Assembly (NCBI GenBank): GCA_038524325.1 | Contig: JBCBIS010000001.1 | Coordinates: 3,150 to 67,149 of the forward strand | Source of the DNA: Pseudomonadota bacterium | GTDB taxonomy: Bacteria; Pseudomonadota; Alphaproteobacteria; Rhodobacterales; Rhodobacteraceae | Direction: 5' to 3' | Length of the DNA stretch: 64,000 nucleotides | Shown: positions 8,274 to 34,509 of the stretch, in pieces | Layout: each line of letters opens with the position of its first letter | Position numbering within the stretch: the stretch's first letter is position 1 | Program-made: the position numbers and the translations under genes | Notes under the pieces: generated by a model | The model's input: the letters and a program-made list of their open reading frames with translations, nothing else | What the model was told of the DNA's origin: nothing | Databases searched by the model: none

Positions 8274-9326
8274 ATGGGCGCTGAGATACACGGACAGTCT
8301 TGCAGAGCAACCGGCACGGGCCGGGTTGAGGGGTCGGAGATCGTAGGCTCCGCCCCAGGGTTTCGCCGCGCCCTCTCGGCCGCACGCAAGGCGGCGAGCT
8401 GTTCCGCACCGGTTGTTGTCGGCGGCGAGACCGGCACGGGGAAAGAGCTGATCGCCCGCCTGATCCACCGGCTCAGCGACCGGGCGCGGCGCAGTTTCGT
8501 GCCGGTCAATTGCGGCTGCCTGCCCAGCGATCTGGTCGAGAACGAACTGTTTGGGCACGAGGCAGGCGCGTTCACCGGGGCGACCTCGGCCGCCACCGGG
8601 TTGGTGCACCTGGCCGATCGCGGCACCCTCTTTCTAGATGAAATCGATGCGCTGGTCCCGCGGGCGCAGGTGACCTTGCTGCGGTTCTTGCAGCAGGGCG
8701 AGGTGCGGCCGGTGGGGGGCGGTCCGACCTCTCGGGTCGATTGCCGCATCCTCGTCGCCTCCAACCGCCCATTGTTCGATCTGGTCGAGCAGGGGCTGTT
8801 CCGCGAGGATCTCTATTTTCGGCTGAACGTGTTGGAGGTGCATCTGCCGCCGCTGCGCGAGCGGCGCGAGGACCTCCCCGCCCTGGCGCGCCATTTCCTG
8901 ACGAAGTTCGGCAACGCCTATCGCCGTCGGGGACTGCGCCTCGAGGCCGAAGCGCTCGCCTGGATCGCGGCACAGGATTGGCCGGGGAATGTCCGCGAGC
9001 TGGAAAACCTGCTGCACCGCGCCGTCCTGATGGCGGAGGGGACCGAGATCACCCGCGATCTCCTCGCCCCCGACCCCTGCCATGTGCAGCACCTCGGCAA
9101 GACGCCCTGTCGGGCCCGGCCCTCCTCCGACCCGATCGAGCCCTTTGCCGACGCGAAGGCCAAGGCGATCGCAGCGTGGGAGCGGGGCTATCTGACCCGG
9201 CTGATGGACGTGGCCGGCGGCAATGTCACCGCCGCTGCCGCCCGCGCCGGCAAAGAGCGTCGGGCGCTGGGCAAGCTGCTTAAGAAACACGGGCTAGAGA
9301 CCGGCAGCTCAGGGCCCGGGGCTTGA
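8274..9326 (+). CDS. Sigma54-dependent transcriptional activator (bacterial enhancer-binding protein, bEBP) without an N-terminal sensory domain
   Basis: Walker A GETGTGKE, sigma54-contact loop GAFTGA, Walker B FLDEIDAL, and a C-terminal Fis-type HTH GNVTAAAARAGKERRALGKLLKKHGL. The AAA+ core begins about residue 23. An in-frame TGA at 8205-8207 limits any N-terminal extension to 22 codons. Confidence 0.9.
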   Translation: MGAEIHGQSCRATGTGRVEGSEIVGSAPGFRRALSAARKAASCSAPVVVGGETGTGKELIARLIHRLSDRARRSFVPVNCGCLPSDLVENELFGHEAGAFTGATSAATGLVHLADRGTLFLDEIDALVPRAQVTLLRFLQQGEVRPVGGGPTSRVDCRILVASNRPLFDLVEQGLFREDLYFRLNVLEVHLPPLRERREDLPALARHFLTKFGNAYRRRGLRLEAEALAWIAAQDWPGNVRELENLLHRAVLMAEGTEITRDLLAPDPCHVQHLGKTPCRARPSSDPIEPFADAKAKAIAAWERGYLTRLMDVAGGNVTAAAARAGKERRALGKLLKKHGLETGSSGPGA

Positions 9327-32622: not shown

Positions 32623-34509
32623 TCAGGTCTGGACGTCGCCGGTGATCTGGCGGAACCGGATCACGACGAATTCGGCGGGTTTGAGCGGTGCGAAGCCGAC
32701 CTCGATATTGACGATCCCGGCGTCGATATCGTTCTGCGTGGTCGTCTCGCTGTCGCACTTGACGTAATAGGCCTCGCTGGGCGTTGCGCCCTGGAAGGCC
32801 CCCTGCTGGAAGAGCCCGTTCATGAAGGCCCCGACATTCAGCCGGATATTGGCCCAGAGCGGTTCGTCATTGGGCTCGAACACCACCCATTGGGTGCCGC
32901 GGAACAGGCTCTCCTGCAGCATCAGGGCGGTGCGGCGGACCGAGATGTACTGGTTTTCCGAGGCCAGTTGGTCGGCCCCTTCGGCGGTCCGTCCACCCCA
33001 GGCCACCGTGCCGATCACCGGGAAGGTCCGCAGCGCGTTTATGGCGAGCGGGTTGAGCACGCCGTTCTGGCCATCGTTCAGCGTCGCCTCCAACCGGCTG
33101 ACGCCTTCGAGCGTGGTGTCGATGCCGGCGGGCGCCTTCCACACCCCACGGGTCGTGTCGGTTCGCGCCCAGACCCCGCCCATCGTGCCCGAGGCGCCAA
33201 CCGCGCGCAGGCGGAAATCGTTGGTCGGGTCGGGGATCATCACGCGGGGGTAGTAGATCGCCGCATTGGCCGAGCGATAGCCTGCCGTCTCCAGCTCAGC
33301 CATCAGGTCGGTCATGTCCTGCAACGTGGTGATCCCCGCTGGCAGGTCGATGACGACCATGGCGCGGCGATCCTCGGCATAGGAAATCGCTTGCGAGTAG
33401 ACCGCATCCCGGTTGGCGGCGTTCAGGGCCGCGGCGCGGGGCACCATCAGGATGTTGAACAGATCCACATTGTCGAGTGCGAACATGCCGGTCGGCGGCT
33501 CCAGGGCATTCGAGCCGATCAGGTCGCCCGCGCCCGGCTGGCCGCCATTGCCGCCGCCCCCCAGGGCGAATTGCGTGGCGCTCTCGGTTGCCGTGCCGGT
33601 GGCGATGTTCATCGTCGCCGCCGAGGGGTCGGCCGCGAAGACCACCGTGTCTGTCGGCGCATACCCCGCCCCGCTCTGCCCCGAGACCACGCGGAAGGCG
33701 CCGCGCTCCAGGAACACGCGCGCGCCGGAGAAGGCCGGGTTGCCCACGGCGGCGGCGCGGATGGCGGCCTCGAGCCGGGCGCGAAGCTGGCCGAGGCTGG
33801 TCACCGCCTGATCGGGCGCGGCGGTCGGCCAGGAGAGCGTCGCCGTCTCGGTCACCCCGCCGATGGTCACGTCGATGGTGGTGCCGCCGCCGATCGTGTC
33901 GAAATCGCCCTGGGTCAGCCCCGAGATATCGGTGCCCAGCGTCCCGCTGGCCGGTGGCAGGCCGGCGCCGGTGGCCTGGACCGTCACCATCTGCGATCCG
34001 TCATTGACGATGGTCTCGACAAAGCGTGCATCGGTGGCGGTCATCGAGAGGTCGAGGAAGGTCTCGCTCAGCAGCCCCTGCGCGTTCCCATCGGTCGAGG
34101 CGAAGCGGATGACCCGCATGTTGAACCGGCCCGCCGTGGCGGTGTTGTGGTCGATCTCGACCCGCAGCGTATCGCCCCAGAGGCCCGGATTGGCGGCGGT
34201 GACCGTGAGGTCTCCGATCGCGATGGCCGAGTTGCTGTCGGTGCCATCGGTGACGCGCACCACCCAGGCCTCGGTGCCGCCGTTCAGGAAGAATTGCGGG
34301 ATCTGAAAACTCGACTCAGAGAGCGTGTCATAGCCCCCGAAAATCCGCTCGAAATCGCCGGTTCCAAAGATCCGGACCGGTTCGTTAACGGGCCCCTCGC
34401 GGAAGTAATCGACAAAGGCGCCGATACTGGTCGCGACCGAGCGGATCACCCGCCGCCCGCTGGGGATCTCCTCGATATAGACGCCGGGCGCGCCAAGTTG
34501 CTGTGGCAT
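32623..34509 (-). CDS. Contractile tail sheath protein
   Basis: 628 aa. N-terminal PGVYIEEIPSG...SIGAFVDYF and C-terminal AWGGRT...YISVRRTALMLQESL signatures of phage tail sheath proteins. AGGGAGGTGA ribosome-binding site. Confidence 0.92.
   Translation of the reverse strand: MPQQLGAPGVYIEEIPSGRRVIRSVATSIGAFVDYFREGPVNEPVRIFGTGDFERIFGGYDTLSESSFQIPQFFLNGGTEAWVVRVTDGTDSNSAIAIGDLTVTAANPGLWGDTLRVEIDHNTATAGRFNMRVIRFASTDGNAQGLLSETFLDLSMTATDARFVETIVNDGSQMVTVQATGAGLPPASGTLGTDISGLTQGDFDTIGGGTTIDVTIGGVTETATLSWPTAAPDQAVTSLGQLRARLEAAIRAAAVGNPAFSGARVFLERGAFRVVSGQSGAGYAPTDTVVFAADPSAATMNIATGTATESATQFALGGGGNGGQPGAGDLIGSNALEPPTGMFALDNVDLFNILMVPRAAALNAANRDAVYSQAISYAEDRRAMVVIDLPAGITTLQDMTDLMAELETAGYRSANAAIYYPRVMIPDPTNDFRLRAVGASGTMGGVWARTDTTRGVWKAPAGIDTTLEGVSRLEATLNDGQNGVLNPLAINALRTFPVIGTVAWGGRTAEGADQLASENQYISVRRTALMLQESLFRGTQWVVFEPNDEPLWANIRLNVGAFMNGLFQQGAFQGATPSEAYYVKCDSETTTQNDIDAGIVNIEVGFAPLKPAEFVVIRFRQITGDVQT

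Follow-up and report, generated by a model that had tools for sequence, protein, structure and literature searches.

Gene content of an 18-gene operon from a Rhodobacteraceae bacterium points to a lineage II contractile injection system with a putative sigma-54 promoter

A stretch of 64,000 nucleotides from a Rhodobacteraceae bacterium (the window) carries 18 consecutive minus-strand genes, running from 34509 (the ATG of a sheath gene) to 9309 (the stop of the last gene), and raises the question of which contractile machine these genes build. Reading the genes alone, we consider it very probable that they specify a lineage II contractile injection system from the Afp/PVC ('eCIS') superfamily, that is, a headless phage-tail-like particle.

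Gene starts and limits were set from the list of open reading frames, by inspection of start codons and ribosome-binding sites and by codon-position GC. The operon limits given in a preliminary description of the locus (9309-34509, 18 genes) were recovered unchanged. With the chosen starts, seven junctions are 4-nt overlaps of the ATGA type, one is a 1-nt overlap of the TGATG type and one is an 8-nt overlap. The remaining gaps measure 3, 9, 10, 11, 12, 14, 18 and 72 nt, which reproduces the nine overlapping junctions and the 3-72 nt spacing described before. Weak coding statistics are confined to genes 3 and 4 (30421-32093), where a long antisense ORF is also found; even so, related loci retain both genes, with similar sequence and in the same position.

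Families were assigned by Pfam and NCBIfam profile searches, plus PHROG matches. The Pfam search of the products, suggested in the preliminary description and here extended by NCBIfam, confirmed the family assignments. That description had supplied 15 functions for the 18 genes; the genes it passed over are a 96-aa gene after the ATPase, a 96-aa gene between V and gp25, and a DUF4157 gene at the 3' end.

Gene 1 (32623..34509, minus strand as for all 18 genes) encodes a contractile sheath of the Cis2/Afp2-4 type with 628 aa (PF17482, Phage_sheath_1C, 1.8e-10). The nearest solved chains are the Streptomyces CIS sheath 8bky (1.6e-71) and the haloarchaeal sheath 9ezm (6e-63), followed by Pvc2 (3e-38); since 8bky and 9ezm belong to lineage II, this was counted in favour of that lineage. 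The inner tube, of T4 gp19 / Cis1 type, is gene 2 (32108..32611, 167 aa; PF06841 4e-37, TIGR02241 4.7e-36).

The product of gene 3 (31365..32093, 242 aa) had been taken for a protein in the chaperone position. It is instead a baseplate-hub assembly protein like T4 gp26, carrying a four-cysteine site (conserved C88, C93, C175 and C178), as 20/25 homologues match PF12322 (T4_baseplate) and BFVD matches include 'baseplate hub assembly protein, T4-like' and gp26 with E down to 1e-7. The AlphaFold model has a pLDDT of 94.8, no fold match was found in PDB, and tblastn matches the gene in nearly all of 84 related loci. Gene 4 (30421..31368, 315 aa) encodes a proline-rich protein without a match in the family searches. 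In 46 related loci this slot is taken by a Pro-rich ORF of 230-340 aa with a common C-terminal motif, V.VTIGRIEVRA...SLDDYL, which in the window reads VEVTIGEVTVDIEA...DLSRHYLRGR. Its position and composition suggest a role as tape measure.

Gene 5 (29275..30417, 380 aa) is the tube/sheath terminator cap (Pvc16/Afp16, DUF4255) with an IPT/TIG domain, matching PF14065 (Pvc16_N = DUF4255) at 2.4e-16 and PF01833 at 1.6e-5. Gene 6 (27233..29278, 681 aa) is an AAA+ ATPase of the Cis15/Afp15 type (PF00004, 6e-27), and its full-length homologues with 40-74% identity occupy the same operon position in other genomes. Gene 7 (26946..27236) encodes a 96-aa protein with no match in family searches, which is conserved: homologues stand in this slot in the related loci L001, L002, L004, L007, L018 and L033. 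Gene 8 (26272..26949, 225 aa) encodes a putative tube-like, Cis5-like baseplate adaptor that would serve as tube initiator; the match to PF19266 (CIS_tube, 3.5e-4) is under the Pfam cut-off, and the gene is conserved by tblastn in related loci.

The baseplate genes follow. Gene 9 (25992..26261, 89 aa) encodes a LysM baseplate protein similar to P2 gpX / T4 gp53, with a weak LysM match (1.7e-3) and a match to PHROG 7145, baseplate wedge subunit (1.2e-6). The VgrG-like spike is split in two. Gene 10 (24879..25979, 366 aa) is the hub, or gp27/gpD half (PF05954, Phage_GPD, 1e-9; N-terminal part of VgrG_rel, 2.8e-9), and gene 11 (24163..24879, 238 aa) is the spike, or gp5/gpV OB-fold half (PF04717, Phage_base_V, 9e-23; C-terminal part of VgrG_rel, 3e-15).

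Gene 12 (23863..24153) encodes a 96-aa protein with no match in family searches, in a slot that is occupied by a PAAR/DUF4280 protein in 13 related loci. An assignment of gene 12 as a PAAR protein was rejected, as a profile comparison of the two types gave a probability of 0.05%. The gene-12 type is limited to the window and to the related loci L001, L002/3, L004 and L023. Judged by sequence, the spike-tip PAAR protein is absent and an unrelated small protein sits in its place.

Gene 13 (23480..23866, 128 aa) is the gp25/gpW baseplate wedge (PF04965, GPW_gp25, 7.8e-14). Two gp6/gpJ-type proteins come next: the wedge Cis11a of gene 14 (20986..23487, 833 aa), matching the baseplate assembly protein family TIGR02243 at 1.5e-49, which exceeds the cut-off, and PF04865 at 2e-6; and the Cis11b-like product of gene 15 (18245..20989, 914 aa; TIGR02243 1.5e-35; PHROG 6, baseplate wedge subunit, 4e-11). 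Gene 16 (15945..18248, 767 aa) encodes a gpI/Cis12-like baseplate protein. It is called I-like from its position and from sub-threshold matches (TIGR02242, phage tail protein domain, residues 9-121, 5.7e-6, under cut-off), and L001, L002 and L004 have a gene for 761-767 aa in the same position.

The tail fibre had been assigned to the last gene. It is in fact gene 17 (11313..15926, 1537 aa), with a DUF6519 (eBAP5) anchor at residues 1-169 (PF20129, 5.9e-10), CarboxypepD_reg/Ig domains (PF13620, 1.2e-10) and a right-handed beta-helix (PF13229, 1.5e-11). DUF6519 has been described as an anchor of eCIS fibres, often with beta-helix domains after it (PMC12923769).

The terminal gene 18 (9309..11240, 643 aa) encodes a cargo or effector candidate with a DUF4157 'eCIS core' domain (PF13699, 1.1e-31) and the architecture of known eCIS cargo. 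The N-terminus is disordered and acidic with repeated E-rich ...LQ(M/T/R) motifs, the DUF4157 domain contains HELTH at residue 238, and the C-terminal domain contains HEGxH at residue 546, whose residues H546, E547 and H550 do not vary among 21 homologues. The predicted model has pLDDT <50 for residues 1-33, 40-54 and 84-162, and mostly >85 for 263-638. Searches of PDB by sequence and by fold gave no match, nor did the C-terminal domain match any family, so that the probable action of the C-terminal domain as a metallopeptidase-like toxin is read from the invariant HExxH. No immunity gene lies beside gene 18, and the window contains no other DUF4157 ORF. DUF4157 is a marker of eCIS toxins at operon 3' ends; CIS-dependent secretion of DUF4157 proteins has been reported for haloarchaea (PMC11566945), and AlgoCIS experiments have established both a cargo built in this way, with disordered N-terminus, DUF4157 and C-terminal domain, and its ATPase-dependent loading.

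For classification we used the lineage II scheme of dbeCIS (Chen et al. 2019, PMC6899500) and eCIStem (Geller et al. 2021, PMC8213781). The sequence contains the full set of structural modules, i.e. tube (2), sheath (1), hub and spike (10, 11) and wedges (13-16), and further the LysM protein (9), fibre (17), cap (5), AAA+ ATPase (6) and one cargo-type protein (18). All 8/8 core backbone components of Chen et al. 2019 are among them, which upholds the earlier view of a stand-alone contractile injection system with cap and AAA+ ATPase as its eCIS hallmarks. The operon resembles lineage II/IIa loci in having these eight components, an Afp8 split into gp27-like and gp5-like parts, two Afp11 copies, divergent Afp12/13 and an associated DUF4157 protein, and in lacking a recognisable Afp14 homologue, with a conserved lineage-specific protein in its place. 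It differs in the PAAR (Afp10) slot, taken by the unrelated 96-aa protein, and in the position of the DUF4157 gene. The published scheme gives lack of PAAR as a trait of IIb. By published gene-content criteria, on which this call is based, the operon seems closest to subtype IIa.

A related MAG (ATPase 74% identical), Rhodovulum euryhalinum (58%) and Bradyrhizobium iriomotense (45%) share the 16-gene order, and about 80 loci from many phyla share the order sheath, tube, gene 3, cap, ATPase, baseplate. In Afp and PVC, the cap and ATPase genes come after the fibres. Their position in the middle of the operon had for this reason been described as a departure, but it is the standard of the lineage: the ATPase follows sheath, tube and gene 3 in 62/65 informative related loci across many phyla, and the baseplate genes are 3' of the ATPase in 28/28. 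The DUF4157 gene, at the 3' end in the window, stands directly after the ATPase in 49/62 relatives. The comparison with P2 and pyocins holds as an analogy of order but not as homology, the recognisable homologies being of T4 type (gp19 tube, gp25, gp26-like hub assembly protein, split gp27/gp5, gp6-like wedges).

A sigma-54 (-24/-12) promoter, TGGCACagctcTTGCT, lies at 34570..34585 on the minus strand, 61 nt upstream of the sheath ATG. It is the sole zero-mismatch match in 64 kb, where about 0.05 such sites are expected (1.5e-4 in the 400-nt spacer), and no other block of the upstream region is as well conserved in L001 and L002. It appears from the sequence to switch the operon on. A candidate enhancer (UAS), the palindrome GGGTCGtccgCGACCC (34674..34689, minus strand), is centred ~97 nt upstream of the -24 element; L001 has a matching palindrome, GGGTCGtgggCGACCC, in the same relative place, and the Rhodovulum locus L002 a degenerate one. 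An activator may bind here.

The candidate for this activator is a 350-aa sigma-54 enhancer-binding protein (8274..9326, plus strand), whose gene converges on gene 18, the two ends overlapping by 18 nt. It is an AAA+ protein with GAFTGA (PF00158, 1.9e-58, residues 23-189) and a C-terminal Fis-type HTH, without an N-terminal sensor domain; NCBIfam matches to NifA/NorR/PspF are confined to their central and HTH parts. The gene lies 25 kb from its proposed promoter. Among related loci, an activator gene stands directly upstream of the sheath in 14/82. Promoter-like sites occur in 8/14 of these activator-adjacent loci vs 6/68 others (Fisher p=1.6e-4), and in 11/14 when the whole gap is scanned. 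On account of the promoter and of this recurrence of activator genes, the enhancer-binding protein is likely to serve the operon. No rpoN gene was found in the window.

The activator VasH is encoded with the T6SS cluster of Vibrio cholerae. That system is likewise a contractile injection apparatus under RpoN control, according to one report (PMC3439928), but it is a different machine, and the activator of the window has no N-terminal sensor domain. Regulators reported to adjoin eCIS loci are of the RfaH, GerE/LuxR and BTAD types, not sigma-54, and no report linking sigma-54 to eCIS was found in the literature searched.

Does the particle act outside the cell? Of the eCIS reading, the contractile injection system stands, but 'extracellular' is not established, as the two characterised systems with the nearest solved sheaths act from inside the cell. 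The same machine could remain unreleased and work from within its producer, either as a free cytoplasmic particle that fires under stress and kills its own cell, as in Streptomyces, or attached to the envelope's inner face and firing into a neighbour, for which the haloarchaeal 'T6SS-like' CIS and the thylakoid-anchored cyanobacterial CIS are the models. We regard this as unlikely, though with points in its favour: the nearest solved sheaths come from a cytoplasmic system, the Streptomyces CIS, and a membrane-bound one, the Halogeometricum CIS, lysis genes are absent from the window, and a sensor-less PspF-like sigma-54 activator would fit a stress response.

The Halogeometricum borinquense CIS, which has been called the first member of clade IIa to be characterised (PMC11566945), shares with the window a close sheath (9ezm, 6e-63), two Cis11 copies, a split Cis8 and DUF4157 proteins, which are its secreted substrates (gene 18 in the window). 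Its T6SS mode, however, correlates with a putative membrane anchor of six predicted transmembrane helices, whereas no convincing transmembrane segment was found in any product of our operon; the flanks differ among the window/L001, Rhodovulum and Bradyrhizobium loci, with no conserved membrane protein. The H. borinquense cluster is split by an 8.7-kb spacer, while the window has an uninterrupted operon in a Gram-negative host, where firing from within would mean passing the outer membrane with no trans-envelope complex. The Streptomyces coelicolor CIS (subtype IId; PMC10066040) shares lineage II, the nearest solved sheath (8bky, 1.6e-71) and the lack of a conventional tape measure (PMC10066040). 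It acts in the cytoplasm and has no tail fibre, in contrast to the large fibre of the window (1537 aa) with its baseplate anchor and beta-helix receptor-binding region, and its effectors have a single transmembrane domain with no DUF4157 reported, in contrast to the DUF4157 cargo. The lineage I systems Afp, PVC and AlgoCIS have the same functional parts list, and the AlgoCIS cargo Cgo1/2 is built like gene 18 and requires the AAA+ ATPase for loading; their sheaths are far more distant (3e-38 to 2e-35), their VgrG is a single long protein, split in the window, and Afp/PVC have three sheath paralogues.

A tailocin or defective prophage tail of R-type pyocin kind, which kills purely by puncturing the membrane and carries no cargo, would account for an order resembling P2/pyocin tail modules and for the missing head genes. 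It is very improbable, as the operon has both genes that set eCIS apart from phage tails, the AAA+ ATPase and the DUF4255 cap (no match to gene 5 in a phage collection of 50,697 records), and a DUF4157 cargo-type protein, and lacks holin, endolysin and phage regulatory genes. Phage sheaths align to the C-terminal domain only, over at most 46% of the sheath length, vs nearly the full length in 80 genome loci kept from a search with the sheath alignment (39-61% identity in the best segment). The earlier argument against a prophage remnant or a T6SS is borne out, as the flanking genes of the 64-kb window yielded none of the families for capsid, portal, terminase, lysis, integrase or T6SS membrane complex; tRNA genes were likewise not found there. 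A canonical type VI secretion system shares the contractile sheath, tube, VgrG-like spike, gp25 and AAA+ ATPase but can be practically dismissed, because the sheath is one phage-type protein, not TssB/TssC, the window has no matches to TssJ/L/M, TssK/F/G, TssA or ClpV, and the operon has gp6/J-type proteins and a DUF4255 cap, which T6SS are said to lack (Chen et al. 2019).

For the headless injection particle, the following course is proposed. Sigma-54 RNA polymerase would start at the TGGCAC-N5-TTGCT promoter, opened by the sensor-less activator from the far end of the operon, probably bound to the palindrome ~100 nt upstream. The gp26-like protein would aid building of the hub, and the tube would polymerise on the baseplate around the proline-rich gene 4 protein as length ruler, followed by the sheath around the tube and the cap ending both. 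The AAA+ ATPase would recognise the disordered acidic N-terminus of gene 18 and thread the protein into the tube lumen. The particle would most likely leave its producer by lysis. The fibre beta-helix domain would then bind a surface glycan of the target cell, the baseplate would open, and contraction of the sheath would drive spike and tube through the target envelope, freeing a cargo whose HExxH domain is probably a metallopeptidase-like toxin. The system is of a widespread and already catalogued kind, the lineage II eCIS.

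An ORF listing, together with start-site inspection and GC at codon positions, gives eighteen consecutive minus-strand genes between the sheath ATG (34509) and a stop codon at 9309. With the starts chosen, neighbouring genes overlap by 4 nt (seven junctions), 1 nt (one) or 8 nt (one), and the other junctions are gaps of 3, 9, 10, 11, 12, 14, 18 and 72 nt. The ORF list and the choice of starts thereby reproduce the operon limits and junction figures of the preliminary description. Base composition in the window ranges from 60 to 72% GC; the operon has 68.3%, against 62.2% and 65.3% in the flanks, and this excess is a modest hint of horizontal origin. 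Poor coding statistics were found only in genes 3 and 4 (30421-32093), where a long antisense ORF lies; both genes are real, since their sequence and place are kept in other genomes. An antisense ORF over gene 3 (31401-32249, plus strand, 282 aa) has high third-position GC and an Arg/Gly/Gln-rich, low-complexity translation, and was taken as a shadow of the GC-rich coding strand and not as a gene.

Pfam and NCBIfam were used for assigning the genes. Gene 1 is a phage-type sheath (Afp2/3/4; PF17482, 1.8e-10) with PDB matches to Cis2, Pvc2-4 and Afp2-4, and gene 2 is a tube protein of the T4 gp19 family (Afp1/5; PF06841, 4e-37; TIGR02241, 4.7e-36, over its cut-off). The cap, gene 5, carries Pvc16_N/DUF4255 (Afp16; PF14065, 2.4e-16) together with an additional IPT/TIG domain, and adjoins the AAA+ ATPase, gene 6 (Afp15; PF00004, 6e-27), with an overlap of 4 nt. 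Gene 8 is CIS_tube-like by a sub-threshold match. Gene 9, at the Afp7 position, is a LysM protein by a weak match (1.7e-3, 18.7 bits against a Pfam cut-off of 20.9); it also matches a PHROG baseplate wedge family (1.2e-6) and keeps its position in related loci. Genes 10 and 11 are the two halves of a split Afp8, i.e. a Phage_GPD hub (1e-9) matching the N-terminal part of VgrG_rel and a Phage_base_V spike (9e-23) matching its C-terminal part. Gene 13 is the gp25 wedge (Afp9; PF04965, 7.8e-14), and genes 14 and 15 are two TIGR02243 baseplate assembly proteins (gp6/J, Afp11; 1.5e-49, over the cut-off, and 1.5e-35), the first of which (Cis11) had no match among PDB sequences. Gene 16 has a TIGR02242 N-terminal domain at a sub-threshold 5.7e-6. 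The PHROGs gave no match for genes 3, 4, 7, 8, 12, 16 and 18.

The fibre was assigned from its domains. Gene 17 consists of DUF6519 (5.9e-10), CarboxypepD_reg/Ig (1.2e-10) and a right-handed beta-helix (1.5e-11). DUF6519 has been described as eBAP5, the baseplate anchor of tail fibres in extracellular contractile injection systems (eCIS), with beta-helix domains often coming after it (PMC12923769), which identifies gene 17 as the fibre. The terminal gene, to which this role had been given, is a DUF4157 protein instead (gene 18; eCIS_core, PF13699, 1.1e-31) and therefore not a fibre. DUF4157 is an eCIS-specific marker located on the N-terminal side of toxins, usually in genes at the 3' end of operons (PMC8213781).

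Of the eCIS core of Chen et al. 2019, the locus contains the tube, sheath, split VgrG-like spike, gp25 and gp6/J wedges, ATPase and cap, with gene 9 as a candidate LysM protein. It is almost certainly a lineage II system. This assignment is supported by the solved sheaths, the closest being that of the Streptomyces CIS (8bky, 1.6e-71), next to which the haloarchaeal CIS (9ezm, 6e-63) appears in the PDB ranking, whereas Pvc2, tCIS, Afp2 and AlgoCIS are far behind (3e-38 to 2e-35). According to Chen et al. 2019 (PMC6899500), IIa, IIb and IIc have a split afp8, two afp11 copies occur in IIa and IIc, afp12/13 are divergent in IIa and IIb, afp10 (PAAR) is absent only from IIb, and afp14 is unrecognisable across lineage II. 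Two Afp11 copies (genes 14 and 15) and a split Afp8 (genes 10 and 11) are present in the window, and divergent afp12/13 are represented by the sub-threshold gene 16 and the DUF6519 anchor of gene 17; the afp10 slot holds gene 12. By these gene-content criteria, the window fits IIa on all counts but PAAR.

Searches with Pfam and NCBIfam over the 9 kb to the left and 29 kb to the right of the operon in the window gave no capsid, portal, terminase, lysis or T6SS membrane-complex genes, and the main reading of the preliminary description, a stand-alone eCIS-type contractile injection system, is right, given the eCIS core components with cap and ATPase, a DUF4157 cargo candidate and a window free of phage and T6SS genes. 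An R-type tailocin or P2-like prophage tail would share the contractile parts, and when compared with 50,697 phage records the sheath did match, in its C-terminal domain only and at no more than 46% coverage, with Bacillus phage BCD7 as the best; against this origin stand the cap, the AAA+ ATPase and the DUF4157 protein, the lack of lysis genes in the window, and the cap itself, which had no match in the same phage records. A type VI secretion system (T6SS i-iii) is dismissed, since neither operon nor flanks matched the TssB/TssC sheath, TssJLM, TssK/F/G or ClpV.

The flanks encode metabolic, regulatory and surface proteins only (Pfam and NCBIfam): glutamate-cysteine ligase, a CRP regulator, an MscS channel, a two-component system, a LysR regulator, an M48 peptidase, and PQQ- and sulfur-related genes. 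The latter lie at 617-3863 and 53001-57205 and comprise a PQQ-dependent alcohol/methanol dehydrogenase with cytochrome c and a periplasmic binding protein, pqqB-C-D-E (pqqBCDE) and a fused SoxY-SoxZ (SoxYZ), which suggests a methylotroph-like or sulfur-oxidising alphaproteobacterium as host. A 1529-aa surface protein with Big_9, cadherin-like and SdrD-B repeats (45372-49961, minus strand) is probably an adhesin unrelated to the operon. Divergent from the operon is a gene for a 1202-aa G8/CEMIP beta-helix protein (34912-38520, plus strand), adjoined by a GT87 glycosyltransferase gene (38528-39799, minus strand). This pair was considered as part of the system and rejected, as it is beside the locus only in the close relative, a related MAG, and not in Rhodovulum or Bradyrhizobium; it is probably neighbourhood. 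Scans of the window for tRNAs and Rfam families were empty.

The same order, gene for gene and with near-identical gene lengths, was found in three contigs encoding ATPase homologues, from the related MAG (74% ATPase identity to the window), Rhodovulum euryhalinum (58%) and Bradyrhizobium iriomotense (45%). Additionally, a scan based on the sheath alignment, with one genome per species, yielded 80 loci from Proteobacteria, Cyanobacteria, Bacteroidota, Myxococcota, Actinomycetota, Chloroflexota, Acidobacteriota, Verrucomicrobiota, Planctomycetota and one archaeon. Using tblastn with the window proteins, the ATPase was located after sheath, tube and gene 3 in 62 of 65 informative loci, and the baseplate genes came after the ATPase in all 28 loci (28/28, tblastn). 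A cap and ATPase in mid-operon, which had been described as unusual, is therefore the standard layout of the lineage. Directly 3' of the ATPase, 49 of 62 related loci have one to three DUF4157 genes (tblastn); in the clade of the window, gene 7 (96 aa) is all that stands there, and the one DUF4157 gene lies at the operon 3' end. It is by this 3'-end gene only that the clade of the window is unusual, the Rhodovulum and Bradyrhizobium sequence compared stopping before the operon 3' ends.

Gene 3 (242 aa) has homologues in nearly all related loci, with four conserved cysteines, and 20 of 25 homologues match PF12322 (T4 bacteriophage base plate protein). AlphaFold models gene 3 with very high confidence (pLDDT 94.8). 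A fold search of the PDB returned nothing under E=0.1, and an identity came only from the viral predicted-structure library, where the model resembles 'baseplate hub assembly protein, T4-like' and 'gp26 baseplate hub subunit' entries with E down to 1e-7. In our reading, gene 3 is a T4 gp26-type assembly factor and not a chaperone of the P2 gpE type. Phages BCD7 (JN712910.1) and SP-15 (KT624200.1) are among the best viral fold matches to gene 3 and also match the C-terminal half of the sheath, BCD7 best of all phages and SP-15 more weakly (27.6% identity, 4e-15 for SP-15). Their recurrence hints at the phage group nearest this CIS lineage.

Gene 4 (315 aa, proline-rich) is without a family match. 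In 46 loci from many phyla the same slot holds a proline-rich ORF of 230-340 aa, and these ORFs share with gene 4 a C-terminal signature, V.VTIGRIEVRA ... SLDDYL. The tape measure was reported as 'absent' in lineage II, with conserved lineage-specific genes in its place (Chen et al. 2019, PMC6899500). From its position and composition, gene 4 is probably the lineage II counterpart of the tape measure. The gp26-like and the proline-rich 'TIGRIEVR' proteins, both kept across phyla, make good candidates for the genes of unknown function that were described as lineage-specific in 2019.

The two remaining small proteins each have 96 aa. Gene 7 is conserved and, in some of the loci, stands ahead of the tube-like gene. 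Gene 12 (23863-24153) occupies the slot that in 13 relatives is taken by a PAAR/DUF4280 protein. PAAR, expected from the position, was rejected for gene 12, as hhalign against the PAAR/DUF4280 proteins of the slot gave a probability of 0.05%, and no PAAR-like ORF is present in the whole window. The gene 12 type was found only in the window, the related MAG (15144-15434), Rhodovulum (15107-15385 in R. euryhalinum), Bradyrhizobium (14965-15489 as a stop-to-stop ORF; called gene 15226-15489) and one Mycolicibacterium locus (20346-20645). The family has an invariant motif, EDRR.(M/I)FVAIA.G, and a C-terminal H..(E).

Gene 18 has three parts. The N-terminal approximately 160 residues are predicted to be disordered and contain repeated acidic '...EEE.LQ(M/T/R)' motifs, the DUF4157 domain with HELTH covers residues 172-249, and the C-terminal domain (window 9309-10452, residues ~263-643) is confidently folded in the predicted model over residues 263-638. 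This last domain carries the second HExxH of the protein, HEGEH, with H546, E547 and H550 invariant across 21 homologues and a conserved SGYGRGTT motif preceding it. It had no match in Pfam, among PDB sequences, or among PDB folds under E=0.1. About 20 DUF4157 proteins share it, Noc_1858 of Nitrosococcus oceani among them, and one related locus has such a domain directly after the ATPase. [quoted passage not shown] Furthermore, haloarchaeal DUF4157 proteins are secreted in a CIS-dependent manner and some are toxic (PMC11566945). By analogy with both, AlgoCIS in architecture and the haloarchaeal proteins in secretion, we conclude that gene 18 would be the cargo of the system. Its activity can be guessed from the HExxH motif to be metallopeptidase-like. 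No immunity-like gene adjoins gene 18.

A promoter and activator pair, not noticed in the preliminary description, was found in addition. The sequence TGGCACagctcTTGCT is positioned at 34570-34585, 61 nt 5' of the sheath ATG and inside the 402-nt upstream spacer. It corresponds to TGGCAC-N5-TTGCT (-24 GG / -12 GC), the only perfect match to the sigma-54 consensus in the window, where about 0.05 such matches are expected (1.5e-4 in the spacer). This site is the best-kept block of the sheath upstream region in the related MAG and Rhodovulum (R. euryhalinum). A palindrome, GGGTCG-N4-CGACCC (34674-34689), about 97 nt upstream of the promoter, is kept in the related MAG. The activator gene (8274-9326) is convergent with gene 18, overlapping it by 18 nt at the operon 3' end, and encodes a 350-aa enhancer-binding protein with an AAA+ core (PF00158, 1.9e-58), GAFTGA and a Fis-type HTH, without a sensor domain. 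rpoN is not in the window. In the Bradyrhizobium locus, a 346-aa activator homologue is encoded directly 5' of the operon, and its gene is followed by TGGCAC-N5-GTGCA.

Of 82 loci, 14, from several phyla, carry an activator gene directly 5' of the sheath gene and oriented like it. Sense-strand promoter-like sites were found in 8 of these 14 and in 6 of the 68 loci without it (Fisher p=1.6e-4), rising to 11 of 14 when the entire gap between activator and sheath was scanned. The eCIS regulators named in the literature examined are RfaH, GerE/LuxR and BTAD. A literature search for sigma-54 control of eCIS found nothing relevant in a limited collection, which is not proof of novelty. RpoN control is known for the Vibrio T6SS (PMC3439928).

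Two further elements were observed in the spacer. A hairpin at 34534-34553 with a 7-bp GC stem (GGGGCGC-gccctt-GCGCCCC) is found downstream of the sigma-54 promoter and ahead of the sheath RBS, in the presumed 5' leader; it is kept in the related MAG with a different loop, and its stem may stabilise the leader or have a regulatory role. The divergent spacer that separates the sheath from the G8-domain gene also contains 180 bp (34720-34900) with only 31% GC in a genome of 65-68% GC, and the related MAG has a similar AT-rich stretch. For the enhancer-dependent promoter, this stretch may serve in bending or in the binding of nucleoid proteins.

The DNA holds a parts list, its conservation, a cargo-type architecture and the promoter with its activator, and a working order can be proposed on this basis. 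Induction of the operon would be sigma-54-dependent. Gene 3 would aid assembly of the hub, gene 4 would set the length, gene 5 would cap tube and sheath, and the ATPase would drive loading of gene 18. The fibre would then recognise a surface glycan, followed by contraction and injection.

Judged from the gene content, a released particle is somewhat favoured as the mode of action. An intracellular or anchored mode is unlikely, though it agrees with the lack of a lysis cassette in the window and with the characterised systems having the closest solved sheaths, which act from inside the cell and not extracellularly (PMC11566945, PMC10066040). The operon encodes a large fibre, whereas the cytoplasmic Streptomyces CIS is without one (PMC10066040); it encodes no transmembrane proteins, and no conserved membrane partner is found beside the locus across relatives. 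Less probable still is that the window, the related MAG, Rhodovulum and Bradyrhizobium form a functionally distinct branch of lineage II, stress-triggered and firing from inside the producer, either in altruistic lysis or in an attack that depends on contact, instead of acting as a free extracellular particle, and with a cargo from a new family of HExxH enzymes. The non-PAAR tip protein, the cargo at the operon end and the sigma-54 promoter with a sensor-less PspF-like activator may be the marks of such a branch.

As a lineage II system, with release the favoured mode, the locus adds to a kind already widely catalogued; eCIS loci are known in thousands of genomes and one more adds little alone. 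In the literature examined there is no characterised lineage II system from Gram-negative bacteria. The clean sigma-54 promoter and its minimal activator offer a possible experimental switch for a 25-kb operon, and a single cargo candidate with AlgoCIS-type loading architecture and an unclassified HExxH C-terminal domain provides an experimental handle. The sigma-54 switch, the non-PAAR occupant of the spike-tip slot and the putative cargo's unclassified HExxH domain are the features of most interest.
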